From the NCBI GenBank assembly GCA_963791765.1, contig CAWBTL010000005.1, positions 302,235-366,234 on the forward strand: DNA of 64,000 nucleotides, in the 5' to 3' direction. This DNA is from an uncultured Alphaproteobacteria bacterium. GTDB taxonomy: Bacteria; Pseudomonadota; Alphaproteobacteria; Sphingomonadales; Sphingomonadaceae. Every line of letters starts with the position of its first letter. Within the stretch, counting starts at the first letter, position 1. Positions 18,529 through 64,000 of this stretch are shown here, in pieces. The notes below the pieces were generated by a model that did not search any database, had not been told where the DNA came from, and saw nothing but the letters and a program-made list of their open reading frames with translations. Both the position numbers and the translations under genes were made by a program.

Positions 18529-18921
18529 TCAGATAAACACTGCCCCGACCCCGACATCGGGATGCACCGTCGATTTGCCCGGCGGGTGCAGCGTGAAGAT
18601 GCTGCCGTCGGAATTCATCGCATTGAACACTTCCATCTGCATCGGCGCCGAGCAGCAATCAAGCAGCTTGCCGACCAGTTCGACGAAGCCCGGATCGGCG
18701 CGGACCGCGGCGACGATCGCGGGGCTTTTCCAGCTCTCGATAGCGACGAATTCGCCCGGGCGGCTCCAGCCGTAGAACACGAAGTTGGTGGTCTCGCCCA
18801 TGGCGTCGCGGAAGCCATCGACCAGTGCGGTGAACATGCCGAGGAATTCCTCACGCCGTTCGGGCTTGAGCGTGAAGCGCGAGATGAAGCAATCGCCTTC
18901 GGTGATCAGCGGGGCAGTCAT
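18529..18921 (-). CDS. ABM-like (dimeric alpha-beta barrel) protein
   Basis: F.LKPERREEF...FVAIESWKS pattern; overlaps the P450 stop codon. Confidence 0.7.
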   Translation of the reverse strand: MTAPLITEGDCFISRFTLKPERREEFLGMFTALVDGFRDAMGETTNFVFYGWSRPGEFVAIESWKSPAIVAAVRADPGFVELVGKLLDCCSAPMQMEVFNAMNSDGSIFTLHPPGKSTVHPDVGVGAVFI

Positions 18922-20177
18922 AACCGGTTTCCTTTGTCAAAGCCCAGCCGCACACTGGTGACGCCGCGGTGGAGCAGGCCGGGCCAGTAGGCGGTGTCGC
19001 TGCCCTCCAGCAGGCGCAGGTTCTTGAGCCGCGCCAGCAGGGTGTTGATGCCCACCGCCAGCTCCTTGCGCGCGAGCATCTGGCCCAGGCAGCGGTGCTG
19101 GCCAAAGCCGCCGAAGGCGACATGCTGGTGCGCGTTCTTGCGGCGGATGTCGAATTTGCCGGGGTCATCGAACTTGCCGGGATCGCGGTTGGCGGCGTCA
19201 TAGCGCAGCAGCAGCGCCGCGCCTTGCGGGATGGCCACGCCGCCAAGCTCGGTATCGCGCGCCGCCACCCGCCACATCGACGTAGCCGGCGTTTCATAGC
19301 GCAGCAGTTCCTCGACCGCACCCCGGGTCAGCTCGGGATCGTCCGTCAGCGCCTGCAACTGCGCGGGATCGCCGATCAGGCGGACGATGCCGCTCATCAG
19401 CGTGTTGCGCGTGGTCTCGTTGCCCGCCACTGCGATTTCGAAGGCGGACGGGGCGATCTCGTCGTCGGTGAAGGGCTCCATGCCATCGACCCGCGCGGCG
19501 ATCAGCAGCGAGATCAGATCGTCTGCGGGCTGCGCGCGCCGCGCGGCCACGGTGGCCTTGATGAAGCGGCGCATTTCCAGCACCATCTTCGCCGCTTCGA
19601 GTTCCTCTGCGGGGGTGCCCATCCGGCTGACGATCCGGATCACCCCGTCCGACCATTTGCGCACCTTGTCATAATCGGCGCGCGGCAGGCCGAGGATGTC
19701 GGCGATGATATAGGTTGGCAGCAGCACCGCGTACTGGTTGACGAAATCGCACTCGCCCGCCTCGATGAAATCGTCGATCAGCTCGTTGGCGATGCGCTCG
19801 ATGGTCGGGGCCATGTTGGCAATGCGGCCCTGCGCGAAGACGGCGTTGACCAGCGCGCGGTAGCGCTTGTGCTCGGGATCGTCGGAGATCAGCAGCCGCG
19901 CCGGGTCGATCCAGTCCTGCGCCAGCACCGCCGCAACTTCGGGCGAGCTTTCGCCCCCGGCCATCAGCAAATGGCCCATCTTGCTGGAGAAATCACCCGC
20001 GCGCTTGGATACTTCCTCGACCAGCGCATAGGAAGTGACGAGATAGAACTGCTGCCCGCCCGGCCCTTCCGCCAGCGCCACCGGCGCCTCGTTGCGCAAC
20101 TTTTCGTAGAAGGGGAAGGGGTTGGCCAGCAGCTGCGGATCGCTGAAAGGTACCGGCGGTGCGGCAAGCGTAGCCAT
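18918..20177 (-). CDS. Cytochrome P450
   Basis: AGNETT I-helix, EELLR (ExxR) and FGGFGQHRCLG heme motif. Confidence 0.96.
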   Translation of the reverse strand: MATLAAPPVPFSDPQLLANPFPFYEKLRNEAPVALAEGPGGQQFYLVTSYALVEEVSKRAGDFSSKMGHLLMAGGESSPEVAAVLAQDWIDPARLLISDDPEHKRYRALVNAVFAQGRIANMAPTIERIANELIDDFIEAGECDFVNQYAVLLPTYIIADILGLPRADYDKVRKWSDGVIRIVSRMGTPAEELEAAKMVLEMRRFIKATVAARRAQPADDLISLLIAARVDGMEPFTDDEIAPSAFEIAVAGNETTRNTLMSGIVRLIGDPAQLQALTDDPELTRGAVEELLRYETPATSMWRVAARDTELGGVAIPQGAALLLRYDAANRDPGKFDDPGKFDIRRKNAHQHVAFGGFGQHRCLGQMLARKELAVGINTLLARLKNLRLLEGSDTAYWPGLLHRGVTSVRLGFDKGNRL

Positions 20178-20287
20178 CCTCGTCTCCTGTCGTTTTTCCA
20201 CGATTGTAATCAAGCATACTATTGGTTAGCGTCAGGGCTGTCAAAACGAATCCCGGCCTTCGGGGTCGAGGCGAGAGGACGCGGCGC

Positions 20288-21496
20288 ATGCTGACCCCCT
20301 ATGACGAATTTCCGGTCCACCAGTCGGCCTACAGCTTCAGCCATGTGCCCTCGACGGACTACAGCTGGGACGATGGCTATTACTTCGGGGTGATGAGTCC
20401 GGAGCACGGGGTGTTCCTGGCGACCGGTCTGCGGGTCAATCCCAACAGCGACATGGTCGGCGGCTATGCCCTGCTCAACATCCGCGGGCGGCAGTTCACG
20501 CTGCGTTTCAACCGCTGTTGGCGGCCCGATTTCTCGTTGCGGATCGGCCCTTACGAGATCACATTTGTCGAGCCACTCAAGAAGATCCGGCTGACACTCG
20601 ATCCCAATGACAGCGGTCTGGAGTTCGATATCCTGTGGGAGGGAACCTCCGCCGCCTATCTCGAAGGGCACCACTTCGCCGAAAACCGCGGACGGCGCAC
20701 CACCGAGCAGTCGCGCTATTCGCAGCCCGGCGTGGCCAGCGGCCATATCGCACTGGCGGGCGAGCGCTGGGAAGTGACGCCGGACAAGTGGACCGGCACC
20801 CGCGATCACAGCTGGGGGCTCTACACCGCACGCGCGCCGCTGGCACCCGATCCGGCGCTGCTGCCGCCCCGTCAGAACAGTGGCCCGGCCCGCGCTCTGC
20901 GCTTCTGGTCGGTGTTCCGCACCGAAGACTACAGCGGCTTTTACCACCTCCACGAAACCGCCCAGGGCGAACAGCTCAAGATGAACGACGTTTTCGGCAC
21001 GCCGTTCGAAGGCAAGCTGTTCAGGGGCTGGGATGACGAGACGGTCGATCTGGCCACCGGCCGCCACGAGCTGAGCTTCCAGCCCGGCACGCGCATTCTC
21101 TCCGGCGCGACGATCCACCTGACCGACACCCAGGGGCGACCGTGGCGGCAGGAATTCCGCTTCGATACGCCGCCCTGGGTGGTGCAGACGATGGGCTACC
21201 ACGCCGGCAGCTGGAAGGACGGCGGCACTTTTCACACGTATCACGGATCGGAAACGCTGGCGCTGGAATGGGATGATTTCGATTTCTCGGTCCAGCCGTT
21301 CAAGTTCACCCCCTATGTCATCGGCGACAAGGCGCGCGACGATTTCAACCTGGGGCTCGATACCAATGCGCTGATCCACGGGCTGGAGTATCTGGGGGAC
21401 ATCACCACCATCGCGCCCGACGGTTCGCGTTATCGCGGTGCAGGGCAGGTCGAATGCATGATCAGCGGGCCCTTTGCGCCCTATGGCTTCGCATGA
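20288..21496 (+). CDS. Conserved hypothetical protein, predicted beta-rich; paralog of 27359-28498
   Basis: Shared pattern D...HQ...N/D.Y.F/W...PN...G..RDH/RxWG with the 27359 ORF. Confidence 0.75.
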   Translation: MLTPYDEFPVHQSAYSFSHVPSTDYSWDDGYYFGVMSPEHGVFLATGLRVNPNSDMVGGYALLNIRGRQFTLRFNRCWRPDFSLRIGPYEITFVEPLKKIRLTLDPNDSGLEFDILWEGTSAAYLEGHHFAENRGRRTTEQSRYSQPGVASGHIALAGERWEVTPDKWTGTRDHSWGLYTARAPLAPDPALLPPRQNSGPARALRFWSVFRTEDYSGFYHLHETAQGEQLKMNDVFGTPFEGKLFRGWDDETVDLATGRHELSFQPGTRILSGATIHLTDTQGRPWRQEFRFDTPPWVVQTMGYHAGSWKDGGTFHTYHGSETLALEWDDFDFSVQPFKFTPYVIGDKARDDFNLGLDTNALIHGLEYLGDITTIAPDGSRYRGAGQVECMISGPFAPYGFA

Positions 21497-22554
21497 TGGA
21501 CCTGCTGGTCCAGCCGCTTGAGGCCTATGCAAGGGCGCGTTTCGGTCCCGGTGCACTGATCGATCATGCCGAAAAGTTCCCGCGCGGTTCCTCGCGCGAG
21601 ACATGGTTCATCACCCTGCGGCGCGAGGCCGGGGCGGCTCCGGAGAAGTTTGTTTTCCGCGCCGATCACCCCAGCGGCTCGACGATCCCGACATCGCTGC
21701 GGCAGGAGCACGACATCTATGCTGCGCTCGGCCGCACTGCCGTGCCGATTGCCCGGGTGCTGTGGTGGGAGGACGATCCGCAGTGGGCAGCGAGGCCGTT
21801 CTTCGTGCGCGAGCAGGTGGAGGGCAGCTGGGAACTGCCCGATTTCATCAATCTCGATCCGAAATTCGACGATTACCGCATCGCCATATCGAAAGAGCAT
21901 ATGCGCAAGCTGGCCATGGTCCACACGGCGGACTGGCGGGCGGCGGGGCTGGGCGATCTGCTATCTGCGCCTGGAAACGAAGCCGATTGCGGCGCGCATT
22001 GCCTGCGGATCATCCGCGCGCAACTCGCTGAATTCCAGAGCGAGGCGATCCCGGTGATGACCGCGGCCTTCGGCTGGCTGGCGAAAAATGCTCCGCCCGC
22101 GCCCTGCGTCAGCCTGTGCAAGGGCACCAATGGCCTGGGCGAGGAAGTGTTTCGCGATGGAACAATTGTCGCGATGAGCGACTGGGAAGAAGCGCTGATC
22201 GGCGATCCCGCCAATGATTTCGCGCATTGCCAGAACTTCATCCCCAGTGTCGTCCACGATGGCGAGGCGGTGTGGGGACTGCCGCAGGCGCTCGACTATT
22301 ACCATTCGCTCAGCGGCATCCGGGTGACACCGGAGGCCGTCGGCTATTACGGGGTGATGCGGGCGCTGCGGATGGTGGTGTTCAGTCACAAGACCGCGAC
22401 CATCGTCGAGGGCAATCCCGCCGCCAACATCCGCCAGACCTGGACGGCGAGCGAGGTCATGCACCTGGGCAAGCAGGCACTTGGTGCCGCCATCGGCCTC
22501 TGCGCAGCGCCATCGGCGGCGCATTATCTCGAACTCAACGATACCGTGGAGTAG
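21493..22554 (+). CDS. APH/ACAD10-like phosphotransferase-fold protein with atypical catalytic loop
   Basis: RGSSRETW, PFFVREQVEG and SDWEEALIGDP motifs; HGD replaced by KGT. Confidence 0.85.
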   Translation: MMDLLVQPLEAYARARFGPGALIDHAEKFPRGSSRETWFITLRREAGAAPEKFVFRADHPSGSTIPTSLRQEHDIYAALGRTAVPIARVLWWEDDPQWAARPFFVREQVEGSWELPDFINLDPKFDDYRIAISKEHMRKLAMVHTADWRAAGLGDLLSAPGNEADCGAHCLRIIRAQLAEFQSEAIPVMTAAFGWLAKNAPPAPCVSLCKGTNGLGEEVFRDGTIVAMSDWEEALIGDPANDFAHCQNFIPSVVHDGEAVWGLPQALDYYHSLSGIRVTPEAVGYYGVMRALRMVVFSHKTATIVEGNPAANIRQTWTASEVMHLGKQALGAAIGLCAAPSAAHYLELNDTVE

Positions 22555-22559
22555 GCGCA

Positions 22560-23045
22560 ATGATCGTTCCGACCGCAGCGCAGATGCTCAAGACCGTCCA
22601 GCATACCTTCGATGCCGAACTGCGCCCCGATCTGTCCAGCACCGCCACCCGCAGCGCCGCCGCGACGATCAGCCACATGCTGCGCGTGGTCACGCTGCGG
22701 ATCGAGACCGAGGGGCAACTGCTGCTCGACGAAGGCTTGCGGCTGGACGCGCTGCTGCCGCGGGTGCGGCGCTGGCTGGAGGAGCAGGGACTGCCCTCGG
22801 CTGCCAGTATCGCTGCCGCCCCGCCGCATGCGCCCGGCACCTATCCCAGCCTTGCCCTGATGGCAGAGCGGAACGGAGCACTGCGGCAGGGAGTCTGCGA
22901 CGCGCTCGAAGTGTTGCAGGCGGCAGAACTCGACGCCGATGGCAGGGCGCTGCTGGACGAGCTGCACGGCATGATCGCCTGGCAGCTCGAACAGGAAGGC
23001 CGGATGATCGATCCCGCCACCATCGGCCACGGGCCCAGACGCTGA
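22560..23045 (+). CDS. Small helical partner of APH protein (LvaB/DUF6285-like, tentative)
   Basis: 161-aa ORF immediately after the APH gene; similar N-terminus (P....L..V...L...L.P) to 31978-32376. Confidence 0.6.
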   Translation: MIVPTAAQMLKTVQHTFDAELRPDLSSTATRSAAATISHMLRVVTLRIETEGQLLLDEGLRLDALLPRVRRWLEEQGLPSAASIAAAPPHAPGTYPSLALMAERNGALRQGVCDALEVLQAAELDADGRALLDELHGMIAWQLEQEGRMIDPATIGHGPRR

Positions 23046-23090: not shown

Positions 23091-23930
23091 ATGCCCGATC
23101 CCGATCCCAAGATCTTCGAAGGCTTCAGCGTCGATCTTTCAGGCAAGGTTGCCGTCGTGCTCGGCTGTTCGGCCGAAGGCGGCACCGGCTGGGCGGTGGC
23201 CGAGGCATTGGCGAGAAATGGCGCAAAAGTCGTGGTCGGATCGCGCACACGCACCGAGCTTGACCGGCTGGCGGCGAAGATCGGCGGCACTGCGGTGACC
23301 TGCGATGCAGGCGACGAGGCGCAGGTCAAGGCGCTGGCGCAGGCGGCGCTCGACACTTACGGGCGGCTCGACATCGCGGTGAATTCCGCCGGTCAGCCGG
23401 TCATCAGCCTGATTGCCGATATCGAACAGGAACAGCTCGACCAGGCCGTGCGGGTCAATCTGTTCGGCAATTTCTACTTCGTCAAACATATGGCCGCAGC
23501 CATCGGTTCGAACGGGTCCATCGTCATCATATCGTCGATCAGTTCGACGCATCCGATCCTGCCTCATGCCGGCTATGCAGCGGCCAAGGCGGCGAGCGAC
23601 TGTCTGGTGCGCTATGCCGCGCTTGAATATGGCCCGAAGAATATCCGCATCAACTCGATCCTGCCCGCATCGATCAAATCCGACATGGCGAAGGAAGCCT
23701 TCGCGCTGGCGGAGTTTGAAGCGATCCAGGCGCGCGAAGTGCCGCTGGGACGGGTCGGGTTTCCCGAGGACTTTGCCAACGGCGTGCTGTTCCTTGCCGG
23801 GCCTTCCTATATGACCGGTGTGAACTGGCAATTGAACGGCGGCAACCAGCTGACCCGCCTGCCCTATCTCGACGAGCTCCCCGGCGGACGCGAAGCCTAT
23901 GGTTCGGGCAAGGTGCTGGGCGACCGTTAG
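23091..23930 (+). CDS. SDR oxidoreductase
   Basis: GKVAVVLG, VNSAG, YAAAK (YxxxK) and IRINSILP motifs. Confidence 0.92.
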   Translation: MPDPDPKIFEGFSVDLSGKVAVVLGCSAEGGTGWAVAEALARNGAKVVVGSRTRTELDRLAAKIGGTAVTCDAGDEAQVKALAQAALDTYGRLDIAVNSAGQPVISLIADIEQEQLDQAVRVNLFGNFYFVKHMAAAIGSNGSIVIISSISSTHPILPHAGYAAAKAASDCLVRYAALEYGPKNIRINSILPASIKSDMAKEAFALAEFEAIQAREVPLGRVGFPEDFANGVLFLAGPSYMTGVNWQLNGGNQLTRLPYLDELPGGREAYGSGKVLGDR

Positions 23931-24026: not shown

Positions 24027-24530
24027 ATGGCAAACAGGACAAAAGCCGCGAAGGCAGTCGAGACGGCCAAAATCCGCAAAGTCGCGCCGCAGCCCTACCT
24101 CAAGATCGGCTTTCTGGTGCATGACGTATCGCGCATGCGCCGGACCCTGTTCGATCAGCGGCTCAAGGATCTGGGCATAACCCGGGCGCAGTGGTCGGCG
24201 CTGGCGGCGCTGTCGCGGCACGAAATCGAAGGCACCATCCAGAGCCATCTCGCGCGCGAGCTGGAGGTCGGCAAGGTCACCATCGGCGGGCTGATCGACC
24301 GGCTGGAGGCCAGCGGCATCGTCGAGCGCCAGACCGACGCCGAAGATCGCCGCATCCGCCGCGTGTTCATCACCGCCAAGGGCTATGACGTGATCGAGCA
24401 GATGCAATCCATCGGCCGCGAGCTCAACACGGTGATCATGAAAGACATCACCACCGACCAGATCCACCTGGCCGAGGAAGTGCTCCACCAGATGAAGGTC
24501 AATCTGCGCGAGGCTCTGCTGCAGGAATGA
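24027..24530 (+). CDS. MarR family regulator
   Basis: GITRAQW.AL, Q..LA.EL.V.K.T...LIDRLE..G...R...DRR winged HTH. Confidence 0.93.
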   Translation: MANRTKAAKAVETAKIRKVAPQPYLKIGFLVHDVSRMRRTLFDQRLKDLGITRAQWSALAALSRHEIEGTIQSHLARELEVGKVTIGGLIDRLEASGIVERQTDAEDRRIRRVFITAKGYDVIEQMQSIGRELNTVIMKDITTDQIHLAEEVLHQMKVNLREALLQE

Positions 24531-24673
24531 GTGGGGCTGCAGGAATAAACACCTGCCGAATCCGGTTGATCGGGAAAGTCAGCTAGCATATCGTTACCTA
24601 GCGAGCTTGATTGGCTCGGCGGAGGGATGGGCTGTATTGCCGGGCCCGCGCCAGCCCGGGTAATGGCCAGGTT

Positions 24674-25588
24674 ATGGAGCACCAAGTGGGAAGATTGCTG
24701 GAGGGTAAGGTTGCCATCGTGACCGGAGCGGGGCGAGGGCTGGGCCGGGCCTATGCGCTGATGCTGGCAAAGCATGGTGCCAAAGTCGTGATAAATGACC
24801 TTGGCAGCGCCGTCGATGGATCGACCTCGGACGATACGCCCGCCGAAGAAGTCGCCGCGCTGATCCGCGCCGACGGCGGCGAGGCGGCGGTCAACACCGG
24901 CGACGTCACCAGCTGGGACGCGGCAAAGGCGATGGTCGAGCAGGCGGTGGACAGCTTCGGCACGCTCGACATCCTGATCAACAACGCCGGCATCCTGCGC
25001 GACCGGATGCTGATCAACATGACCGAAAGCGAATGGGACCAGGTGGTGAATGTCCACCTCAAGGGCACCTTCGCGCCGATGCACCACGCCGCCAATTTCT
25101 GGCGGCTGGAGCAGAAGGCCGGCAAGCCGGTCGACGCGCGGATCATCAACACCACCTCGCACAGCGCGCTGTTCGCCAACATTGGCCAGACGAATTACGC
25201 CGCAGCCAAGGCGGGCATCGCCACCATGTCGATCGTCGCTGCGCGCGAACTGGCGCGCTACGGGGTTACCGTCAACGCCATCGCCCCGCGCGCCAACACC
25301 CGGATGACCGAAGGCCTGCGCGAGTGGACGCCCGAACAGGTCGAAAAGCGCAAGCCTGACTGGATCGCAGCGCTGGTTGCATGGCTCGCCAGCCCCGAGG
25401 CGAAAAGCGTCAGCGGCCGCGTGTTCGAAGCCTGGGGATACGGCTATGCGGTGATGGAAAGCTGGCAGCACGGTCCCGCCATGGAGGCCTCGCAAGACCC
25501 GACGGCGATCGGCGAGGATGTGAAGCGGATCGTGCGGTTTGCCCGGGCCAACGCCGGGATCAATGCCAACGAATGGCTCGATCCCTAA
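24674..25588 (+). CDS. SDR oxidoreductase (MFE-2/17beta-HSD4-like hydroxyacyl-CoA dehydrogenase type)
   Basis: TGAGRGLGRAYA, NNAGILRDR, VHLKGTF and NYAAAKAG motifs. Confidence 0.9.
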   Translation: MEHQVGRLLEGKVAIVTGAGRGLGRAYALMLAKHGAKVVINDLGSAVDGSTSDDTPAEEVAALIRADGGEAAVNTGDVTSWDAAKAMVEQAVDSFGTLDILINNAGILRDRMLINMTESEWDQVVNVHLKGTFAPMHHAANFWRLEQKAGKPVDARIINTTSHSALFANIGQTNYAAAKAGIATMSIVAARELARYGVTVNAIAPRANTRMTEGLREWTPEQVEKRKPDWIAALVAWLASPEAKSVSGRVFEAWGYGYAVMESWQHGPAMEASQDPTAIGEDVKRIVRFARANAGINANEWLDP

Positions 25589-30368: not shown

Positions 30369-30375
30369 GTGCGAC

Positions 30376-45337: not shown

Positions 45338-45347
45338 GGGGCGAGAC

Positions 45348-47712: not shown

Positions 47713-47722
47713 GGTCTGAGCG

Positions 47723-50850: not shown

Positions 50851-50877
50851 TGCGGCGGGCCGAAAATTTCTGCCAGT

Positions 50878-51226: not shown

Positions 51227-51263
51227 GAGTAACAATTCGCGCGTTTTACAATAGGCTGCCGGC

Positions 51264-55272: not shown

Positions 55273-55797
55273 TCACAGTGACAGGATATCGCGGGTTTCA
55301 CGTAAATAGAGCGTGCCGCTGGACGTGTCGGTCACGGTCACTTCATGCCGCACATAGCGGCGGCCGCGCTTCTCGTACTTGTCGATCGCCCGGGTGGTGA
55401 TGCGGACCGTGGCCCCCACCGGGATCGGCTCGAGAATTTCGGAATCGTGGTAGGTGTGGATCGATCCGATCGCAAAGGGTTTGGTGTGATCGAACTGCAC
55501 CGACAACACGAAATGCGACACCAGCAGCGGCGGCACGATCGCGCTGCCGAAGGGCGATTCACCCGGGATGTACCAGGTGTTCATCCGCCACCCTTCGTAC
55601 CACGGATTGAAGTCCTCGACGGCATCGGCATAGAGGATGACGAGTTCGGGCGTGATATGGAGGTCGCGGGACAGCTCGTCGCCGATCTCGACCATATCCC
55701 AATAGGTCTGCGATTCCTGCTCCAGCCCTTTGATAAAGGCGCGCGTCTGGGCCTCCTGGATGGGGCTTTGGGGGTGGAGGTCTGTGTCATTGGTCAT
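55273..55797 (-). CDS. Hot-dog fold (MaoC-like) protein
   Basis: YADAVEDFNPWY, IVPP and EILEPIPVG...DKYEKRGR pattern. Confidence 0.75.
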   Translation of the reverse strand: MTNDTDLHPQSPIQEAQTRAFIKGLEQESQTYWDMVEIGDELSRDLHITPELVILYADAVEDFNPWYEGWRMNTWYIPGESPFGSAIVPPLLVSHFVLSVQFDHTKPFAIGSIHTYHDSEILEPIPVGATVRITTRAIDKYEKRGRRYVRHEVTVTDTSSGTLYLRETRDILSL

Positions 55798-56030: not shown

Positions 56031-56477
56031 TCAAACGCCAACATCGACTTCCACCCATCCGACGGTCTTCTTTTCACCCGCCTCGTTGTCGCACCAGATG
56101 TCGACGGTGAACCGGTAGCCGTTGCCTTTGGGCGTCTTCTCGCGAACCACGCCGTGGGTGGTGATCACTTCGCCCGCGAGTGTCGAGGCGACATATTTGC
56201 AGACTACCCGCGCATTCCTGAACATCTGCGCGCCGAAGTGATTGACGCACATCTCGGTCAGATAGGCCGACGACATCTCGCCAGTCTGGATCGGCGCTTT
56301 GAGCCCGGTGGCTGCCGCATATTCGGGATCCCAGTGGTTGGGATTGAACCGCCCCCACAGCCGCGATCCCATGAGCTGGATCGCCGCGCGCTTCTTGATC
56401 GGCGCCAGCTCGAAACCGACTGGGGTGTCCTTCGTGACCAGGGGAAATGCCTTTGAAACCGCTGCGTCGTCCATCAT
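56031..56477 (-). CDS. MaoC-like dehydratase subunit
   Basis: FNPNHWDPEYA..TGLKAPIQTG and GEVIT.HG.V.E pattern. Confidence 0.78.
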   Translation of the reverse strand: MMDDAAVSKAFPLVTKDTPVGFELAPIKKRAAIQLMGSRLWGRFNPNHWDPEYAAATGLKAPIQTGEMSSAYLTEMCVNHFGAQMFRNARVVCKYVASTLAGEVITTHGVVREKTPKGNGYRFTVDIWCDNEAGEKKTVGWVEVDVGV

Positions 56478-56487
56478 AGTCTCCCAC

Positions 56488-58104
56488 TCAGCTATTGGCC
56501 GTCCGCTCCGTGCCGAGCAGCACGAAGCCTTCATATCCCTTTGCCGCCGTCTTCTCCAGGATCCGGCGATAGCCGCGTACACCTCCCGAGTAGGGCATGA
56601 AGACCTGCGGCTTCCCCGGCATTTCCGCTCCGAGATAGTAGGACGGCGTCAAGGGGTAGAGCGTCTCCAGCGCGCGTTCGTTGACATGCGCGACCCAGTC
56701 CCGCTCTGCTTCGGCGGTGACTTCGATCTCGGAGACACCCTGGCTGCGGGCGAATTCGAACAGCCCTGCCAGCCAGTCGATCTGCTCCTCCGATGACAGC
56801 AGCACATTGCTCAGCAGCGAGGGACTACCCGGTCCGACGATGATGAACATGTTCGGAAAGCCGTGGACGCCAATGCCCAGATAGCTGACCGGCCCGGCCG
56901 ACCACTTGTCCCGCAGCGTCAGGCCGCCGCGCCCGGCAATTTCGGGCTTGAGCAGCGACCCGGTGAAGGCATCGAACCCGGTCGCGTAAATGATGACATC
57001 CAGCGGGATTTCCCCCGCCGACGTGCGAATTCCGCCCGGCGTGATCGCCTCGATCGGGGTTGCGCTGATATCGACCAGAGAAACATTGGCGCGGTTGAAG
57101 GTGGCGAAATAGCCGCTGTCGACCGAGGGACGGCGGGTGCCGAAGGGAAAGCCCTTCGGCGTCAATTTCTCCAGGACCACCGGATCGTCGACCTGCTCGG
57201 CGATCTTGGCGCGGATGAATTCGGCTGCGGTCTCGTTCGAGCGGAGGTCGAGCAGGATGTCCTTGAAGGTCAGCGCGAAACCGAAGCCAAGCCGGTTCCA
57301 CGAAGCCTCGAAGGCGGCGCGTCGCTCGTCTTCGGGAACGTCGGTGGCCGATCGCGTGTCGGGCACGAAGCCCAGGCCGCTGGGCGAATTGCGCGCCGCT
57401 TCGCGCCGTTCGGCATAGTTCGCCTTCACCTCGCGGTCTTCCTCGTCGGAGACCGGGGCATTGGCGGCGGGGATCGAGAAGTTGGCGGTTCGCTGGAACA
57501 CCGAAAGATGCGACGCGACCGCAGCGACTACCGGTGTCATCTGCACGCCGGACGATCCGGTGCCGATGATGCCCACGCGCTTGCCGGCAAGTTCGACGTG
57601 GTCCTTCGGCCAGCGCGCGCTGTAAACAATGCGCCCGGCGAAGCTATCCTGCCCGGGATAGACGGTGTCCTTGGGCGCGGACAGCTGCCCCATCGCCAGG
57701 ATCAGCTTGCCAGCTTGCCAGCGCCGCCCATCCTCAACCTCGACATCCCAGACAGCATGCGCCTCGTCATAGCTTGCGCGCGTCACCCGCGTGTTCAGCT
57801 CGATATCGCGGCGCAGGTCGAAGCGGTCGACGACATGGGCGATATAGCGCAGAATTTCGGGCTGGGTGGCGTAGCGTTCGCTCCAGCGCCACTCCTGCTC
57901 CAGCTCGGGCGAGAACCGGTAGGAATAATCGAAGCTTTCGACATCGCAGCGCGCGCCGGGATAGCGGTTGAAATTCCACACCCCTCCCACGTCATCGTCC
58001 GCTTCCAGCACAGCGACCGACATTCCCATCGACCGCAGCGTGTGGAGCGCGCGCAGCCCCGCAAATCCGGCACCGATCACAACAGCATCTACTTGCGCAG
58101 CCAT
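56488..58104 (-). CDS. Baeyer-Villiger monooxygenase (PAMO/STMO-like)
   Basis: GAGFAG, GGVWNFNRYPGARCD, GTGSSGVQ, FQRTANF and YATGFD motifs; fingerprint reads FAGRIVYSARWP. Confidence 0.93.
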   Translation of the reverse strand: MAAQVDAVVIGAGFAGLRALHTLRSMGMSVAVLEADDDVGGVWNFNRYPGARCDVESFDYSYRFSPELEQEWRWSERYATQPEILRYIAHVVDRFDLRRDIELNTRVTRASYDEAHAVWDVEVEDGRRWQAGKLILAMGQLSAPKDTVYPGQDSFAGRIVYSARWPKDHVELAGKRVGIIGTGSSGVQMTPVVAAVASHLSVFQRTANFSIPAANAPVSDEEDREVKANYAERREAARNSPSGLGFVPDTRSATDVPEDERRAAFEASWNRLGFGFALTFKDILLDLRSNETAAEFIRAKIAEQVDDPVVLEKLTPKGFPFGTRRPSVDSGYFATFNRANVSLVDISATPIEAITPGGIRTSAGEIPLDVIIYATGFDAFTGSLLKPEIAGRGGLTLRDKWSAGPVSYLGIGVHGFPNMFIIVGPGSPSLLSNVLLSSEEQIDWLAGLFEFARSQGVSEIEVTAEAERDWVAHVNERALETLYPLTPSYYLGAEMPGKPQVFMPYSGGVRGYRRILEKTAAKGYEGFVLLGTERTANS

Positions 58105-58225: not shown

Positions 58226-58999
58226 ATGACCGGGCAATTCGCACCTCCGTCGCGTAAAATCGCCATCGTTACCGGGGCTGCACGGGGCATTGGCGCTGCC
58301 ATTGCGCGCCGATTGGCGCAGGATGGCCATGACGTCGCGGTGGTCGATCTCAAGCTCGATGCCTGCGCGGATACTGTCGCCGCCGTCGAGGCGCTCGGCC
58401 AGCGCAGCGTGGCGATCGCTGCCGATGTGTCGGACGAAGCGGCGGTGCGGCGCGGGGTGGCCGAGGTGGTGGGTGCTCTGGGAGCGCCGACGGTGCTGGT
58501 CAACAATGCCGGCATCCTGCGCGATCGCACCCTGGCCAGGCTCACTCTTGAAGACTGGGAAACCGTCATCGACGTCAATCTGCGCTCGGTTTTCCTGATG
58601 TGCCGCGAAGTGCAGGCTCACATGCGGGCGGCGCGCTGGGGCCGGATCGTGAACCTTTCCAGCATCGCCGCGCTCGGCGTGTTCGGAGAGGCCAATTATG
58701 CCGCGGCCAAGGCCGGGATCCAGGGCTTCACCAAAACCATCGCCATCGAACTGGGCCAATACGGGATCACCGCCAATGTCGTGGCGCCGGGCTTCGTGGT
58801 CACCGACATGACCCGCGAAGTGGCGGAGCGGATGAAGGTGAGCATGGAAGAGATGACCGAGCAGATGCTGCGCGACATTCACGTCGGACGCCCCGGCGCG
58901 CCCGACGACATCGCCAACGCCGTGGCTTTTTTCGCGGATGAGCGGTCCGGTTTCGTTACCGGGCAAGTGCTCTACGTCGCGGGAGCGCCGCGCGGATGA
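58226..58999 (+). CDS. SDR oxidoreductase (FabG-like)
   Basis: TGAARGIG, NNAGILRD, NYAAAKAG and ANVVAPG motifs. Confidence 0.93.
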   Translation: MTGQFAPPSRKIAIVTGAARGIGAAIARRLAQDGHDVAVVDLKLDACADTVAAVEALGQRSVAIAADVSDEAAVRRGVAEVVGALGAPTVLVNNAGILRDRTLARLTLEDWETVIDVNLRSVFLMCREVQAHMRAARWGRIVNLSSIAALGVFGEANYAAAKAGIQGFTKTIAIELGQYGITANVVAPGFVVTDMTREVAERMKVSMEEMTEQMLRDIHVGRPGAPDDIANAVAFFADERSGFVTGQVLYVAGAPRG

Positions 59000-59075: not shown

Positions 59076-59145
59076 ATGGCCAATGGCCGATTATAAGACC
59101 GCTTCAAATCAATAAACCTGCAGATTTGCTATGGGGAGTATCATT

Positions 59146-61545
59146 ATGACAATTCGGAACTCTGCTCTGCGTTCGGCGCTGTTCGCGCTTGCATGCAGCA
59201 CCAGCGGCGTAGCGCTGGCGCAATCCGACACCAGTGCGCAATCGTCCGATGAGAACGAAGGCCTTGGCGAAATCATCGTCACCGCAACCAAGCGCAGCGA
59301 AAACCTGCAGGACGTTCCGGTCTCGATCTCGGCAATCGGGGCCGAGCAGCTCCAGTCGCGCGGGGTTACCTCGTCGAATGATCTTGCTGCCGTGGTGCCC
59401 AACCTGCAGGTCAGTTCGCAATACGGCGAAACCTCTCCGAACTTCTCGCTGCGCGGCGTGGGCGTGGCGAACGAGTTTACCGCCAACACGGCGTCGCCGA
59501 TCGGCGTCTATGTCGATGAAGTCAGCCAGTCCTACCGTTACACACACGGTCTGCAACTTTACGATCTGGACCGGGTCGAAGTGCTGCGCGGGCCGCAGGG
59601 CACCCTGTTCGGCCGCAACACCACCGGCGGCGCGATCAGCCTGTACACCCGCCAGCCGAAGCTGGGCGAGGCCAACGGTTATTTCACCGCCGGTTACGGC
59701 AATTATGACCGCATGAAGCTGCAAGGCGCGGTCGAAGTCACCCCCGTGGAAGACAAGGTCGGCCTCCGCGTCGCCTTCAATCTACAGGCGGGTGACGGCT
59801 ATTTCAAAGAACCGGACACTGTCGCCGGCGCTCAGAAAACCTACGGGTTCGCCGATTCCGTCGGCCTGCGCGCCAACCTGCGCCTGAAGCCGTCCGAAGA
59901 TCTGGATATCAAGATCGGTGCCTATTACGCCAAGGACAATCCGATCGGATATCCGCTGCACTATATTGGCCTGGTCGGCAGGAATCCCACCACTGGCGCT
60001 GGCGGAACCGACTTCTTCGGTAACACCCGCAATGGCGACACTACGCCCGGCGGCGCAATCTGCTGCAACTATAACGAAGTCTCACTTGACAAGGGTGGGC
60101 ACTTCCTGACGGAATCCTGGGGCCTCAACCTCAACCTGAATTATCAGCTCAACGATAACTGGTCGATTACTTCGGTCACCGGATATACGGATTCCAAGTA
60201 TAATCTTGATATCGATAATGATGCGACGCCGTCGGATGCCTACTTCATCTTCTATCGTTCCAAGGGTAAGGATTTCAGCCAGGACTTCCGCATCAATTAC
60301 AGCAGCGACAGCGTAAAGGCCCTGCTCGGGTTCTTCTACGGTAATGACACGCTCGATACCAACAACACTGTTCTGGCTTATAACGTGCTGCCCGACGCGC
60401 CTGCAGGCCAGGACCCGTCGCTCTGGGCCCCCGGCATCTCCAACTCCTTCAACGTGCGCTTTGGTTTCAAACAAAAGCGTAAGACATTTGCTGTCTACGG
60501 CGAAGGAACTGTCAGTGTCACGCCGCAGCTGGAATTGACGGCCGGCCTTCGTTACACGAAGGACAAGATGAAATATGCTGACGGTTACTCGGTGCCGATT
60601 ACCGATGTGCCGGGCTCGGACCTCTTCACTCTATACCAGAACCTCAACATCCCGAATGATTACGAGAACTGGTCAGGCCGGGCGATCGTGAACTATGCTT
60701 GGACCGATTCGATCAAGACCTATGTCAGTTTCAGCCGCGGCTTTCGCTCGGGCAGCTACAATGGTTTCGGTTTTGTCACGCCTGCCGCTGTGTACTTCGT
60801 CAAGCCCGAGCGGCTGGATTCATGGGAAGTCGGCTTCAAGACCCGCTTCGCCGATGACCGGATCCAGCTCAACGGTGCCGCGTTCCACTATGATTACAAG
60901 AACCAGCAGGTCAGCGAAGTTCGCGGCGGCCTTGCCTTCCCGCAGAACCTCAACGCGAAGGTGAAGGGTGCCGAGCTCGAATTGCTTGCCAAGCCGATCT
61001 CGGCGCTGACACTGCGCGGTTCGGTTGGTTACCTCGACACCAAATACACTGACGACAACCCCTGCCTGAGCCCGGCAGGGACACCTCCCTCGCCCGCTTG
61101 TCCAACTGGCGGCACGCCCGTTGCCGGCAACAAGGTGCCGTTCGCGTCCAAATGGACACTCAGCTTTGGCGGCGATCTGACGCTGGCCACGGTAGCCGAA
61201 GGCGACATCGTGCTTAGCGGCGAAGTCGCGTACAAGAGCAGCTTCTGGTACGATATGTTCAACGAGAACGCCCGTCCGCCAGCACTTGTTCAAGATGGTG
61301 AGGGTGGAACCACCCAGCTCTATCCGGGCGGCAGGACGACTTTGGTCGGATCGAAGGGCTATGCTCTCATCAACGCCGGCCTCGCCTGGAACGGCGAAAG
61401 GGTTCAGGTCCGCGTCTGGGGCAAGAATATCACTAACAAGAAGTATTATCCCTTTGGCTATGACACCGCCGGTGCCTTCGGCACGGTGCTGCTGACACCC
61501 GGCACGCCGCGCACCTACGGAGTCGAGGCAACATTCAAGTTCTAG
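59146..61545 (+). CDS. TonB-dependent receptor
   Basis: Signal peptide; EIIVTATKR TonB box; VEVLRGPQGTLFGRNTTGGAI plug motif; C-terminal PRTYGVEATFKF. Confidence 0.96.
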   Translation: MTIRNSALRSALFALACSTSGVALAQSDTSAQSSDENEGLGEIIVTATKRSENLQDVPVSISAIGAEQLQSRGVTSSNDLAAVVPNLQVSSQYGETSPNFSLRGVGVANEFTANTASPIGVYVDEVSQSYRYTHGLQLYDLDRVEVLRGPQGTLFGRNTTGGAISLYTRQPKLGEANGYFTAGYGNYDRMKLQGAVEVTPVEDKVGLRVAFNLQAGDGYFKEPDTVAGAQKTYGFADSVGLRANLRLKPSEDLDIKIGAYYAKDNPIGYPLHYIGLVGRNPTTGAGGTDFFGNTRNGDTTPGGAICCNYNEVSLDKGGHFLTESWGLNLNLNYQLNDNWSITSVTGYTDSKYNLDIDNDATPSDAYFIFYRSKGKDFSQDFRINYSSDSVKALLGFFYGNDTLDTNNTVLAYNVLPDAPAGQDPSLWAPGISNSFNVRFGFKQKRKTFAVYGEGTVSVTPQLELTAGLRYTKDKMKYADGYSVPITDVPGSDLFTLYQNLNIPNDYENWSGRAIVNYAWTDSIKTYVSFSRGFRSGSYNGFGFVTPAAVYFVKPERLDSWEVGFKTRFADDRIQLNGAAFHYDYKNQQVSEVRGGLAFPQNLNAKVKGAELELLAKPISALTLRGSVGYLDTKYTDDNPCLSPAGTPPSPACPTGGTPVAGNKVPFASKWTLSFGGDLTLATVAEGDIVLSGEVAYKSSFWYDMFNENARPPALVQDGEGGTTQLYPGGRTTLVGSKGYALINAGLAWNGERVQVRVWGKNITNKKYYPFGYDTAGAFGTVLLTPGTPRTYGVEATFKF

Positions 61546-61612: not shown

Positions 61613-61678
61613 TTTGCGTTTGGGGGGGCGTACTTCCCTCTCCGCTGGTGGGAGCATGTTTCCATTTTACCTTATTTC

Positions 61679-61817: not shown

Positions 61818-61847
61818 AGCAGTGAGAGTTGAGGTGCCATGCGTCAG

Positions 61848-61975
61848 TTGGAGAGGGGGGGCGCCGCCCTCTCGATGTCGCACACCCCTCTCCCAGCTTC
61901 ACTAGCCCCCAGCGGGGCAAGCTGCGCCAGCTCTCCCCTCCAGGGGGGAGGTGAAGTTTGCGCCCCGCCACCCCC
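61848..61975. repeat. REP-like element, partial copy of the 55859 subfamily
   Basis: GTTGGAGAGGGG...CACACCCCTCTCC...CTAGCCCC...GGGGCAAGCTGCGC...CTCTCCCCTCCAGGGG. Confidence 0.8.
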
Positions 61976-61984
61976 ATCAAAAAA

Positions 61985-62002
61985 TTCCACGATGGTGTTG
62001 AC
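61985..62002. promoter_or_regulatory. Operator-like 18-mer overlapping a TTGACG-N17-TAGCAT promoter
   Basis: TTCCACGATGGTGTTGAC; -35 at 61998, -10 at 62021. Confidence 0.68.
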
Positions 62003-62072
62003 GATCGCAAAAACCGCACCTAGCATCATGCCAAAGGGCGCGCTGCGACTCGCCTGCGGTTTGGAGAGTGTC

Positions 62073-63176
62073 ATGATCGACGGGCTTTTCGTGCTTGATG
62101 CGGTGGCGCATGCCTACAACCATCTTCCCACCAACTGGGAAGATCCGGTGCTGGGCGAAGCGATGGTCGATCTCGCCTATGCCCTCGCCGCCGATCCGCC
62201 CGATCCGCAATACGCGATGAGCCGCCGCGATTACCTGCGCGACTGGACGGTGGACGATGCCGCCAATCTGCTGTTCGGTGAAAGCCAGACCGATATCGCC
62301 GTGGTCCACCCGCTGGCAATCTCCTCGTTCAAGGATGGCTATTCGTCGGTCGCCAAAGCAGTCGAGGCGACGTCGAAATATCCCTCGCGGTTCATCGGTG
62401 CCTATGTCTGCGTCGATCCGCTCAAGGGTGCCGATGCGATCCGGTCGATGGACGAGCAGGTCGAACTCTACAGACCGCTTGGGCTCAAGCTTTACCCCAC
62501 CAGCTGGGATGGCAAGGGCCCGGTATCCTGGCGCATGGACGATCCCAAGCTGATCTATCCGCTCTATGAGCATGCCGCCAAGCTTGGTCTCAAGCATGTC
62601 GCGGTCCACAAGGCCGTGCCGATCGGGCCGTTTGCCGTCGGCAATGCCTACAACCCCAGCGATATCGAAAATGCCGCAACCGACTTTCCCGATCTGACCT
62701 TCGAGATCGTCCATGGCGGCCTCGCGTTTCTGGAGGAAACGGCGTGGCTGCTGGGGCGGTTCGGCAACATCCAGATCAACATGGAAATCCAGAACATCAT
62801 CGTCGAACGGCGGCCGCGGGTGTTCGCCCAGATCTTGCTCGGGCTGTGCAAGGTGGGCGGAACCGGCATGCTCGACCGGCTGTTCTGGGGTTCGGGCGGA
62901 ACGCTCCACCATCCGCAACCGGGCCTGGAGGCCTTCGCCAAGTTCGAATTCCCCGAGGATATGCTCGAGAATGCCGGGCTGTTCATGCCGATGAAGCAGA
63001 TCACCCGGGCCAACAAGGAGAACATGCTGAGCGGCACCTTTGCCAGGTCGCATGGCATCGACCTCGAAGCCTGCAAGCGCGCGATTGTCGGCGACCAGTT
63101 CAGCCTGCCGGAAGGCGCGGCGCTGCCCGCGCCCTATTCGACCATCGCCATGGGCGAGCAGCTCACCCATGCCTGA
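62073..63176 (+). CDS. Amidohydrolase_2-fold protein (paralog of 52068-53099)
   Basis: LDAVAH, GLKLYP, VHKA, FEIVHGG and INME motifs; ATG after a GGAG RBS. Confidence 0.85.
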   Translation: MIDGLFVLDAVAHAYNHLPTNWEDPVLGEAMVDLAYALAADPPDPQYAMSRRDYLRDWTVDDAANLLFGESQTDIAVVHPLAISSFKDGYSSVAKAVEATSKYPSRFIGAYVCVDPLKGADAIRSMDEQVELYRPLGLKLYPTSWDGKGPVSWRMDDPKLIYPLYEHAAKLGLKHVAVHKAVPIGPFAVGNAYNPSDIENAATDFPDLTFEIVHGGLAFLEETAWLLGRFGNIQINMEIQNIIVERRPRVFAQILLGLCKVGGTGMLDRLFWGSGGTLHHPQPGLEAFAKFEFPEDMLENAGLFMPMKQITRANKENMLSGTFARSHGIDLEACKRAIVGDQFSLPEGAALPAPYSTIAMGEQLTHA

Positions 63177-63516
63177 TACGCGTGCCGCCATCGTCGCCCA
63201 GCTGGACGAGATCAAGGATCCGTGCAGCGTGGCAAGCGGCGTGCCGATGGGGCTCGCGGAAATGGGCCTGGTCGATACCATCGATATTTCACCCGCCGGT
63301 GATGTTGCCATCCGGCTGCGGCTGACCTCGCCGTTTTGCCACATGATCGGCTTTTTCAAGACCGAGGTTCAGCGCCGGGTCTCGGCCTTGCCGGGAGTGT
63401 CCAGCGTCTCGCTCAGCGCCGATAACGGGCTTGACTGGTCGCCGGACCGGATCTCCGCACCCGCACAGGCGCGCCGCGCCGCCCATCTGCAAGACATGGA
63501 AGCCAGACTGGCCTGA
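63169..63516 (+). CDS. DUF59/MIP18-like protein (paralog of 53096-53395)
   Basis: DPCS...EMGLV...LTSPFC...WSPDR pattern. Confidence 0.82.
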   Translation: MPDTRAAIVAQLDEIKDPCSVASGVPMGLAEMGLVDTIDISPAGDVAIRLRLTSPFCHMIGFFKTEVQRRVSALPGVSSVSLSADNGLDWSPDRISAPAQARRAAHLQDMEARLA

Positions 63517-63525
63517 AGGAACCGG

Positions 63526-64000
63526 ATGATGAGTGGACGCCTCGCAGGAAAAGTCGCGGTGGTTACCGGCGCGGGTTCGGGCATGGGCCGGGCGATGGTC
63601 CGCCAGTTCTGCGCGCAGGGGGCGAAAGTGCTCGCCGCCGATGTCTCGGGCAAGCAGGACGATCTGCCGGCGGAACTGGGCGCTGCCTGCATCGCCACCC
63701 ATGCCGATGTCTCCAAAAGCGCCGATGTCCGCGCGATGCTCGATCTTGCCGTGGAGCACTTCGGGCGGCTCGATGTGCTGTGCAACAATGCCGGCATCCA
63801 GGGTCAGATCGCCCCGACCGCCGAGCATGACGACGACGCCTTCGACGAAGTGATCGCGGTCAACCTGCGCGGGGTGTTCCTCGGCATGAAATACGCGATC
63901 CCGCTGATGCTGCGCACCGGCGGCGGATCGATCGTCAACACCTCGTCGATGGCCTCGCTGGTCGCTTTCACCGGGATGCCAGGATACTCGGCGTCAAAGG
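63526..64000 (+). CDS. SDR oxidoreductase, 3' truncated by window edge
   Basis: MMSGRLAGKVAVVTGAGSGMG...LCNNAGI; frame open to the end of the window. Confidence 0.88.
   Translation, partial: MMSGRLAGKVAVVTGAGSGMGRAMVRQFCAQGAKVLAADVSGKQDDLPAELGAACIATHADVSKSADVRAMLDLAVEHFGRLDVLCNNAGIQGQIAPTAEHDDDAFDEVIAVNLRGVFLGMKYAIPLMLRTGGGSIVNTSSMASLVAFTGMPGYSASK

Follow-up and report, generated by a model that had tools for sequence, protein, structure and literature searches.

Does the run of catabolic genes described here encode one route for the breakdown of an alicyclic, terpenoid-like compound, or several independent functions that share a neighbourhood? We addressed this question for a stretch of 64,000 nucleotides (hereafter the window), C5:302235-366234 of an 11-contig, 3.59-Mb Novosphingobium genome, which is 91.5% complete and looks like a metagenome-assembled genome (MAG). 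On balance, we consider it probable that the window from position 18529 onwards represents a real island of accessory catabolic genes carried by a chromosomal contig, a mosaic predicted to serve the catabolism of terpenoid-type rings, in which the frame breaks that interrupt several genes are assembly errors. At the GC content of the window (~63%), raw lists of open reading frames (ORFs) are crowded with shadow frames; genes were called with a codon-usage log-odds model trained on the long ORFs of the genome, followed by Pfam and NCBIfam scans.

A sequence-only reading of this DNA had placed the left border of the island at ~18529 and had listed two cytochromes P450, a Rieske oxygenase, two Baeyer-Villiger monooxygenases (BVMOs), a crotonase resembling 6-oxocamphor hydrolase (OCH), three acyl-CoA ligases, an acyl-CoA dehydrogenase (ACAD), thiolases, MaoC proteins, a CoA-transferase and short-chain dehydrogenases/reductases (SDRs), together with an uptake system and four regulators. 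The border holds, as the genes left of 18.3 kb are housekeeping genes (recJ, leuA-like, ilvC/H/I, miaA and serB) accompanied by a PIN toxin gene. The inventory was recovered with Pfam and NCBIfam, which count six SDRs, two thiolase-fold genes and three crotonases in 18529-64000; the uptake system corresponds to a TonB-dependent receptor, and the regulators to one MarR and three TetR proteins.

Judged by gene order in other genomes, the island combines at least five modules that are each conserved separately elsewhere, and appears to be a strain-specific mosaic of separately mobile units, several of which move together in Novosphingobium genomes. They span 18.5-24.5 kb (M1), 25.6-36.7 kb (M2), 36.7-41.1 kb (M3), 41.3-55.3 kb (M4) and the region from 55.3 kb on (M5). 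Orthologues of P450_2 (60-88% identity) led to 14 loci, 11 of which carry 5-10 M2 genes; in most of these loci, the lyase, TetR, kinase, small partner, propeller, SDR_c, ECH_1 and BVMO_1 genes lie within ~12 kb. The hosts of M2 are N. lentum, N. colocasiae, N. lubricantis, Altererythrobacter, Zhongshania aliphaticivorans, Paraburkholderia (including chromosome 3 of P. xenovorans LB400) and a Spongiibacteraceae MAG. M2 genes occur without M1 or M3-M5 in the flanks examined of Zhongshania, LB400 and Spongiibacteraceae, and M1 forms a conserved block in N. lentum, on the contig that also carries M2-M4 but ~65 kb beyond them. M3 and M4 are collinear in at least eight Novosphingobium genomes, with M5 following M4 in two genomes (G238 and G218).

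These genes are rare in the genus, since orthologues of P450_1 and of the M4 thiolase were found in 5 and 18 of 376 genomes, respectively, and no BVMO_1 orthologue was detected in 36 genomes of same-genus species, the best match being 43-44%. Megablast searches with both halves of the window against 72,556 plasmids returned short matches of at most ~10% coverage and no collinear record. The earlier proposal of a complete route is not supported for the island as one unit: its modules are separate elsewhere, it is cut by the end of the window, and the assembly shows ten genes with a disrupted reading frame.

Homology and synteny nevertheless allow a route to be proposed. The TonB-dependent receptor would import a ring-containing, methyl-branched (terpenoid-like) ketone or alcohol, which the P450 or Rieske enzymes would hydroxylate and the SDRs oxidise. 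The ring might then be opened in two ways: the OCH-type hydrolase would split a cyclic beta-diketone in a retro-Claisen reaction, and a lactone formed by Baeyer-Villiger oxidation would be hydrolysed. Hydroxyl groups not open to oxidation (tertiary or gamma-hydroxyls) would be phosphorylated by an APH kinase with its small partner, and a lyase similar to 25-phosphosteroid lyase (25-PSL) would eliminate the phosphate to yield an alkene, which amounts to an ATP-dependent dehydration. The resulting acids would be activated with CoA and shortened by M4.

Several points speak against such a route. The modules are apart in other genomes and may serve different substrates, being merely co-located in a hot spot; no redox partners of the P450 and Rieske enzymes (ferredoxin, reductase) were seen in the window; and the NHL-repeat propeller, a candidate for lactone hydrolysis, is not convincing as a lactonase, as its PDB matches are mostly NHL-repeat designs and PknD, with faint lactonase matches.

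Taken to its end, the first point would replace the single pathway by a hot spot of independent small catabolic units (P450/kinase/lyase, BVMO, OCH and bbs-like beta-oxidation), each with its own regulator and substrate. The presence of four regulators in the window and of more beyond it is in keeping with this idea, as are the M2 genes found without the others in the beta- and gammaproteobacterial loci examined, the remote position of M1 in N. lentum, and the abundance of such genes in the genome, which harbours 16 BVMO-like, 22 P450-like and 36 ligase-like loci. In contrast, N. lentum has M2, M3 and M4 side by side; despite rearrangements, M3 borders on M2 genes in one related locus (L014) and on M4 genes in another genome (G216); M5 lies next to M4 in G238 and G218; and the modules complement one another chemically, from hydroxylation and oxidation through ring opening to activation and shortening. 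We regard wholly independent units as possible but unlikely, and retain a mosaic, terpenoid-type catabolic island as our working reading.

Predicted ring cleavage and probable substrate class

The substrate class is suggested mainly by the crotonase ECH_2 of M3 (40290-41081), which is 61% identical to OCH (1O8U; 311 bits) over 226 residues. It also matches the beta-diketone hydrolase of Anabaena (2J5G/2J5S) at 245 bits and any enoyl-CoA hydratase at 77 bits at most. Residues W40, H45, H122, H145, D154 and E244 of OCH (PDB 1O8U/1SZO), reported as its active-site residues in the OCH structure papers, are all identical in ECH_2, as seen in an HMMER alignment with positions counted by hand. The description of this protein as an OCH-like crotonase was therefore apt. 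Its homology makes it a putative beta-diketone hydrolase, for which CoA-independent, retro-Claisen cleavage is predicted, and supports an alicyclic beta-diketone intermediate.

The conserved neighbours of ECH_2 are the genes of the alpha-only Rieske oxygenase and of SDR_d, and the three predicted enzymes fit a scheme in which the substrate is hydroxylated, oxidised to a cyclic beta-diketone and then opened by a retro-Claisen step. Among solved structures, the Rieske protein is closest to carnitine monooxygenase CntA (6y9c) and to other oxygenases of the N-demethylase type (3vca, 4qup), KshA being absent among these best matches. In the window, the SDR_d and Rieske genes are separated by two unrelated genes, for GST and TrhO, that were not found at this position in L014, G216 or N. 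lentum, suggesting that the region was rearranged locally in this strain.

Because the island combines an OCH homologue with two type I BVMOs, an alicyclic, terpenoid-like compound is our best reading of the probable substrate. The substrate had previously been suggested to be a plant terpenoid or a steroid-like molecule. The terpenoid-like part of this suggestion is favoured by these enzymes, whereas no KshA-like Rieske protein was found in the window, and no KstD- or Hsa-type families among its genes with Pfam and NCBIfam, the rest of the genome not having been screened; a steroid-nucleus route is thus not indicated in the window. The breakdown of alicyclic terpenoids by bacteria is known in detail for few substrates only, such as camphor, cineole and abietanes.

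Putative kinase and phosphate-lyase cassettes

The most unusual and most interesting part of the cluster, unrecognised in the earlier reading, consists of two cassettes that associate a P450 with a putative lyase, an APH-fold protein and a small helical partner. The putative lyases (20222-21496 and 27359-28498) both exceed the cut-off of 150 for NCBIfam entry NF053593 (Rv3169 family). Used alone, lyase_2 matches 25-PSL (PDB 9fzn/9g4c) over its N-terminal 216 residues only (E 1e-23, 87 bits), while a profile of nine family sequences that include lyase_1 (alignment A1) covers residues 2-349 of 362 in 9fzn (E 6e-45), with the RDxxWG motif. At the level of sequence profiles, both proteins are thus full-length relatives of 25-PSL. 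In Sterolibacterium denitrificans, 25-hydroxysteroid kinase (25-HSK) phosphorylates a tertiary side-chain alcohol, and the lyase eliminates the phosphate to yield a delta-24 alkene (PMC8449060, PMC11061730).

In M1, P450_1 is followed on the other strand by lyase_1, APH_1 and small partner 1. The M2 genes are ordered by coordinate as lyase_2, P450_2, TetR, propeller, small partner 2 and APH_2 and are on the minus strand, so that transcription begins with APH_2 and lyase_2 comes last. The APH-fold gene immediately precedes that of the small partner in both copies of the window and in the orthologues of 10 loci, and the lyase, kinase and small partner genes are contiguous in P. xenovorans LB400. 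APH_2 and its orthologues keep the catalytic HGDLRPGN (HGDxxxxN) and DWE motifs. A 95-nt tRNA-Ala predicted by ARAGORN inside APH_2 (33197-33291) is unsupported by Rfam and most likely a false positive. Six members of the Rv3169 family are encoded in the genome, four of them directly beside an APH gene and a fifth with an APH gene in the same operon. Pairs outside the window are found at C1:80521-83066, C1:366857-369207 and C3:47366-49562, and neither a small partner nor an adjacent P450 was detected at these three loci.

The composition of the cassettes suggests that they mediate the ATP-driven removal of non-oxidisable alcohols. More tentatively, an aerobic succession of P450 hydroxylation, phosphorylation and phosphate elimination could represent the O2-dependent counterpart of the anaerobic S25DH/25-HSK/25-PSL system, and the two cassettes, the OCH-type hydrolase, the BVMOs and the retro-aldol/thiolytic unit could together constitute a single pathway, so far undescribed, for a terpenoid with a tertiary alcohol or a gem-dimethyl group. 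Speculative candidate substrates include camphor- or fenchone-type ketones, apocarotenoids of the ionone or abscisate type, geosmin and 2-methylisoborneol.

Several observations weigh against this function. APH_1 harbours CKGTNGLGEE in place of HGDxxxxN; its N. lentum orthologue is identical there, so that the variant is conserved, be it a pseudokinase or an enzyme with a different chemistry, and does not stem from an error. Since APH_1 is devoid of the catalytic Asp loop, cassette 1 may lack phosphorylating activity. Among solved structures, APH_2 is closest to 9o56, 3dxp and the kinase domain of ACAD11, i.e. its relatives include 4-hydroxyacyl-CoA kinases of the ACAD10/11 type. APH_2 has no clear match to 25-HSK, the 'APH-like' entry 9fsg, of unconfirmed nature, scoring only E 1.7e-5. 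Finally, no APH gene was found within the 21 kb examined around the Zhongshania copies of M2.

These relatives of APH_2 bring up another role for the kinase and its small partner, that of an LvaAB-type 4-hydroxyacyl-CoA kinase acting on gamma-hydroxyacyl-CoA derived from BVMO lactones, with an unrelated role for the Rv3169-family protein. The constant position of the small partner after the kinase recalls LvaB, whose gene reportedly lies directly after that of LvaA, and ligase, SDR and crotonase genes are present in the same operon as the APH kinase. However, neither M1 nor M2 encodes an LvaC-type ACAD, so that elimination probably falls to the lyase homologue; this is the operon's one relative of a known phosphate-eliminating enzyme, and kinase-lyase adjacency recurs at the three other loci of the genome in which no small partner was detected. 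We find this alternative doubtful in its full form. The two views are compatible if the lyase replaces LvaC, and APH_2 might as plausibly act on a 4-hydroxyacyl-CoA, like the lva and ACAD10/11 systems, as on a free alcohol.

If the cassettes act by phosphorylation and phosphate elimination as their homology suggests, they would explain the aerobic disposal of tertiary alcohols, which are beyond dehydrogenases, and provide a function for the widespread Rv3169/APH gene pair. This idea is directly testable, as the same modules are present in cultured strains, M1-M4 in N. lentum NBRC 107847 and M2 in P. xenovorans LB400.

Predicted chain-shortening unit, frame breaks and gene inventory

Read with the help of the intact orthologues in G238 (locus L063), by which its broken genes were annotated, M4 encodes an ACAD, a TetR regulator, a MaoC hydratase, a protein with the Thiolase_C_1 signature only, a DUF35 protein, a ligase, an SCP2-type thiolase and a crotonase. 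In the window, ECH_3 is followed by Amidohydro_2, DUF59, family III CoA-transferase and TetR genes. The thiolase is BbsB-like (245 bits), and all NCBIfam scores in M4 are below the equivalog cut-offs. The DUF35 protein has tblastn matches of 55-80% in relatives, lig_3 is intact in nine relatives, and no solved relative of the Amidohydro_2 protein was found by sequence.

Ten genes are frame-broken, namely lig_2, ACAD, TetR_2, MaoC_a, the Ltp2-like gene, DUF35, lig_3, ECH_3, the CoA-transferase gene and SDR_c. Their Pfam matches begin mid-profile, or the N- and C-terminal halves of one family are found in two overlapping ORFs, and a sliding six-frame coding-score scan revealed repeated frame switches at 42.4-52.1 kb. 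We aligned the window DNA with four related Novosphingobium loci (82-86% nucleotide identity). This revealed 19 single-base insertions and one deletion within 43658-54398 (10.8 kb), consistent relative to all four loci, and a further one at 33792; within the portions of 25.6-62 kb covered by the alignments, no other frameshifting difference lies in a gene. The ACAD, TetR_2, Ltp2-like, lig_3 and SDR_c genes each correspond to one intact ORF in the relatives checked, and the G238 orthologues of MaoC_a, DUF35 and ECH_3 have full-length Pfam matches.

Short-read metagenome contigs with 96-99% identity lack the extra base at all three sites that they cover (45595, 46190 and 51464, the last in metagenome run X1), and contigs at 90-95% identity lack it at further sites. 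Homopolymer slippage was rejected as the cause, as the extra bases are mostly outside homopolymer runs. A genome-wide scan of 233 loci from ten enzyme families yielded a handful of true splits, and all four that were checked, with frames determined by hand, are +1 shifts, which points to a genome-wide background of insertion-type errors. These four are two ligase and two P450 genes, at C2:105283-106891, C2:951266-952844, C11:67604-69089 and C5:112057-113335.

We deem it quite likely that the frame breaks reflect a poorly polished patch of the assembly, because the changes are nearly all insertions, there are no in-frame stops or large deletions, the affected proteins remain 85-98% identical to their intact orthologues, and a close environmental strain is free of the extra bases. 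An opposing view is that the island is real but that M4 (43.6-54.4 kb) and SDR_c are true pseudogenes, the CoA-dependent part having been lost from a decaying cluster. The splitting of ten genes, the repeat element between the thiolase and ECH_3, the GST and TrhO genes between SDR_d and the Rieske gene, and the accessory, rare character of the island in the genus are all compatible with decay. Bacterial gene decay is deletion-biased, whereas 19 of the 20 frameshifting changes here are +1 insertions; the other split genes of the genome also show +1 shifts, and the near-intact proteins and the 96-99% identical environmental strain without the extra bases likewise speak against decay. Decay thus appears unlikely and assembly error the better account, with the consequence that gene calls in the 10.8-kb patch should not be trusted as they stand.

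The features of the island are collected in Table 1. The hotdog-like protein of M5 and its MaoC neighbour possibly form a two-subunit hydratase; this gene pair is kept beside BVMO_2 in G238 and G218. In L063 (G238:C331), an extra pair of thiolase and DUF35 genes (10813-12449) lies between TetR_3 and the hotdog/BVMO_2 genes, a pair that the window lacks. The MITE/REP-like repeats (miniature inverted-repeat transposable element or repetitive extragenic palindrome; ~240 bp, intergenic) have at least 60 partial blastn matches across the genome, including one at 61676-61836 of the window, and the very high metagenome depth at 50850-51250 is explained by the multi-copy nature of these palindromic repeats. 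P450_1 has its best PDB matches with a reconstructed ancestral CYP125 (CYP125MRCA) and CYP142 (~214 bits).

On the left border of the island, the gene for the PIN-domain toxin (17910-18287) lies between the housekeeping genes and the first island gene. On the right, catabolic genes run at least 25 kb past the end of the window. C5:366235-392000 encodes three luciferase-like monooxygenases, ribBA, three SnoaL-like proteins, a third P450, a zinc-dependent alcohol dehydrogenase (Zn-ADH), two ligases, an SDR, crotonases, a 3-hydroxyacyl-CoA dehydrogenase, an ACAD and a BKACE enzyme.

Table 1. Features of the island by module, with window coordinates. HMM, hidden Markov model.
Module	Feature	Coordinates	Strand	Basis and remarks
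M1	Small conserved protein, 130 aa	18529..18921	-	No Pfam match; downstream of P450_1; 85-88% identical orthologue adjoins P450_1 orthologue in N. lentum and G297
M1	Cytochrome P450_1	18918..20213	-	Pfam p450; nearest solved CYP125/CYP142 (sterol C26 monooxygenases)
M1	Rv3169-family / 25-PSL-like protein 1 (lyase_1)	20222..21496	+	NF053593 240 bits, cut-off 150
M1	APH-fold kinase-like protein 1 (APH_1)	21454..22554	+	Pfam APH; non-canonical catalytic loop CKGTNGLGEE
M1	Small helical partner protein 1	22560..23045	+	No family match; 59% orthologue at same place in N. lentum
M1	SDR_a	23091..23930	+	Pfam adh_short; 82% orthologue in N. lentum M1 copy
M1	MarR regulator	24027..24530	+	Pfam MarR_2; 80% orthologue in N. 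lentum
	SDR_b	24611..25588	+	Pfam adh_short
M2	Acyl-CoA ligase 1	25604..27145	-	Pfam AMP-binding; 83% orthologue, collinear in L014
M2	25-PSL-like protein 2 (lyase_2)	27359..28498	-	NF053593 295 bits, cut-off 150; 4-base overlap with P450_2 stop
M2	Cytochrome P450_2	28495..29718	-	Pfam p450; 60-88% orthologues in 14 loci of alpha-, beta- and gammaproteobacteria
M2	TetR_1	29715..30458	-	Pfam TetR_N + TetR_C_24; adjoins P450_2 orthologue in most related loci
M2	NHL-repeat beta-propeller protein (possible lactonase/hydrolase, function uncertain)	30376..31872	-	Pfam Vgb_lyase, SGL, NHL
M2	Small helical partner protein 2	31978..32400	-	No family match; always directly after APH_2 orthologue in related loci
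M2	APH-fold kinase 2 (APH_2)	32363..33325	-	Pfam APH 117 bits; canonical HGDLRPGN / DWE motifs
M2	SDR_c	33322..34100	-	Pfam on C-terminal part only; frame-broken, one extra base near 33792 relative to L014; single ORF in all relatives
M2	Crotonase ECH_1 (PRK07327 subfamily)	34080..34880	-	NCBIfam NF005595 371 bits, cut-off 292
M2	Type I BVMO_1	34898..36673	+	PDB: cyclohexanone, phenylacetone and steroid monooxygenases, 465-482 bits
M3	SDR_d	36713..37459	+	Pfam adh_short; adjoins Rieske gene in relatives
	GST + TrhO (UPF0176/rhodanese), unrelated genes	37460..39080	-	Pfam
M3	Rieske non-haem iron oxygenase alpha subunit (alpha-only monooxygenase type)	39095..40186	-	Pfam Rieske + Ring_hydroxyl_A
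M3	OCH-type beta-diketone (retro-Claisen) hydrolase, putative (ECH_2)	40290..41081	+	1O8U 311 bits
M4	Gcw_chp outer-membrane-type protein	41302..42048	-	Pfam PF09694
M4	ABM-domain protein	42141..42434	-	Pfam ABM
M4	Acyl-CoA ligase 2 (lig_2)	42431..~44100	-	Pfam from profile position 153 on only; frame-broken near 43658 and 43998
M4	ACAD	44188..45337	+	N-terminal and middle/C-terminal domains in two frames; broken near 44591; single 382-aa ORF in relatives
M4	TetR_2	45340..45939	+	TetR_N and TetR_C_24 in two frames; broken near 45594
M4	MaoC hydratase (MaoC_a)	46019..46489	+	Weak partial Pfam; ~5 breaks, 46188-46433; intact orthologue L063:1867-2439, MaoC_dehydratas 71 bits
M4	Thiolase-fold protein (Ltp2-like)	46490..~47720	+	Thiolase_C_1 signature only; frame-broken near 47025
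M4	DUF35 (zinc ribbon + OB fold) protein	47720..48120	+	Broken near 47930; orthologue L063:3673-4071, OB_ChsH2_C + zf-ChsH2
M4	Acyl-CoA ligase 3 (lig_3)	~48120..49687	+	Broken near 48508/48521 and 48825; ORF pieces match HMM 3-118, 146-245, 234-512
M4	SCP2/lipid-transfer-type thiolase (BbsB-like)	49684..50850	+	Pfam Thiolase_N + Thiolase_C_1; NCBIfam PRK06064, PRK08256 ~300 bits
	Palindromic MITE/REP-like repeat block, ~400 bp	50850..51250		Between thiolase and ECH_3; absent from relatives (10-bp spacer there)
M4	Crotonase ECH_3	51264..52071	+	Pfam from profile position 70 on only; broken near 51470; intact 268-aa gene in relatives
M4	Amidohydro_2 + overlapping DUF59 (FeS_assembly_P), pair 1	52068..53395	+	Pfam
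M4	Family III CoA-transferase	53365..~54580	+	Pfam CoA_transf_3 361 bits, ends at 330/366; broken near 54398 relative to 4 relatives
M4	TetR_3	54582..55256	+	Pfam
M5	Hotdog-like protein	55273..55797	-	No Pfam MaoC match; hotdog assigned from a reading of the sequence
M5	MaoC protein	56031..56582	-	Pfam MaoC
M5	Type I BVMO_2	56488..58080	-	Pfam FMO-like + Pyr_redox_3; 39% identical to BVMO_1
M5	SDR_e	58226..58999	+	Pfam
M5	TonB-dependent receptor	59131..61545	+	Pfam Plug + TonB_dep_Rec_b-barrel
M5	Amidohydro_2 + DUF59, pair 2	61839..63516	+	Pfam
	SDR_f, runs off window end	63526..64000	+	Pfam

Comparison with known systems

The sequence-only reading had held that the cluster matches none of the cam, kstR and lva operon layouts, and the departures from each are described below. 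More generally, we found no collinear characterised pathway, the finding that would have overturned that reading, in the plasmids, genomes or literature searched, and literature searches on OCH in Novosphingobium, on the function of Rv3168/Rv3169 and on clusters that combine a beta-diketone hydrolase, BVMO and P450 retrieved nothing relevant.

The enzyme classes of M4 match those of steroid side-chain degradation units (ChsE ACAD, ChsH MaoC hydratase and Ltp2 aldolase-DUF35) and of the bbs benzylsuccinate operon. Unlike the setting of the steroid units, no KshA, KstD or Hsa genes were found in the window, at odds with a kstR-type layout, and to our knowledge the Amidohydro_2/DUF59 pairs have no counterpart in either system. 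The bile-salt side-chain cluster of strain Chol11 (Rieske, amidase, ACAD and ligase) was rejected as a model, as its paper reports no thiolases or aldolases in the cluster.

With regard to ring opening, the camphor route of Rhodococcus sp. NCIMB 9784 (P450camr, 6-endo-hydroxycamphor dehydrogenase and OCH) resembles M3 in that ECH_2 has SDR and oxygenase neighbours, and both systems would share the logic of hydroxylation, oxidation and retro-Claisen cleavage. They differ by the oxygenase, which is an alpha-only Rieske enzyme here instead of a P450, by the alphaproteobacterial host, and by the other genes of the island, which lack counterparts in Rhodococcus. The CAM-plasmid route of Pseudomonas putida (P450cam, diketocamphane monooxygenases and OTEMO) similarly associates P450 hydroxylation, dehydrogenation, Baeyer-Villiger opening and CoA activation. 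BVMO_1 matches OTEMO at 393 bits, and the three luciferase-like monooxygenases are just right of the window. However, there is no collinearity with the cam operon (camRDCAB, CYP101, putidaredoxin and its reductase) and no ferredoxin or reductase gene in the window; the window P450s have CYP125/142, PksS and CYP107 as their best solved relatives and are not CYP101-like, and the kinase/lyase, Rieske and OCH genes are additional here.

The cassettes recall two systems. Like lvaABCDE of P. putida and mammalian ACAD10/ACAD11, they have an APH kinase followed by a small protein, with SDR, ligase and crotonase genes in the operon, a likeness of gene order and class. In contrast with lva, no LvaC-type ACAD is present in M1 or M2, the sole ACAD of the window belonging to M4; a PSL-like lyase takes its place, and a P450 and a BVMO are added. 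The only characterised relative of the phosphate-lyase cassettes, the 25-HSK/25-PSL system of S. denitrificans (PDB 9fzn, 9g2i, 9g4c), works in anaerobic cholesterol degradation. By comparison, the host here is an aerobe, the partner genes encode P450s and not Mo-dependent C25 hydroxylases, the small helical partner is extra and similarity to 25-PSL is low. In addition, the lyase adjoins the kinase here, whereas no lyase candidate was found near the 25-HSK gene of S. denitrificans (PMC8449060). What relates the two systems is the homology of the lyases over their full length, together with the linkage to an APH-fold kinase.

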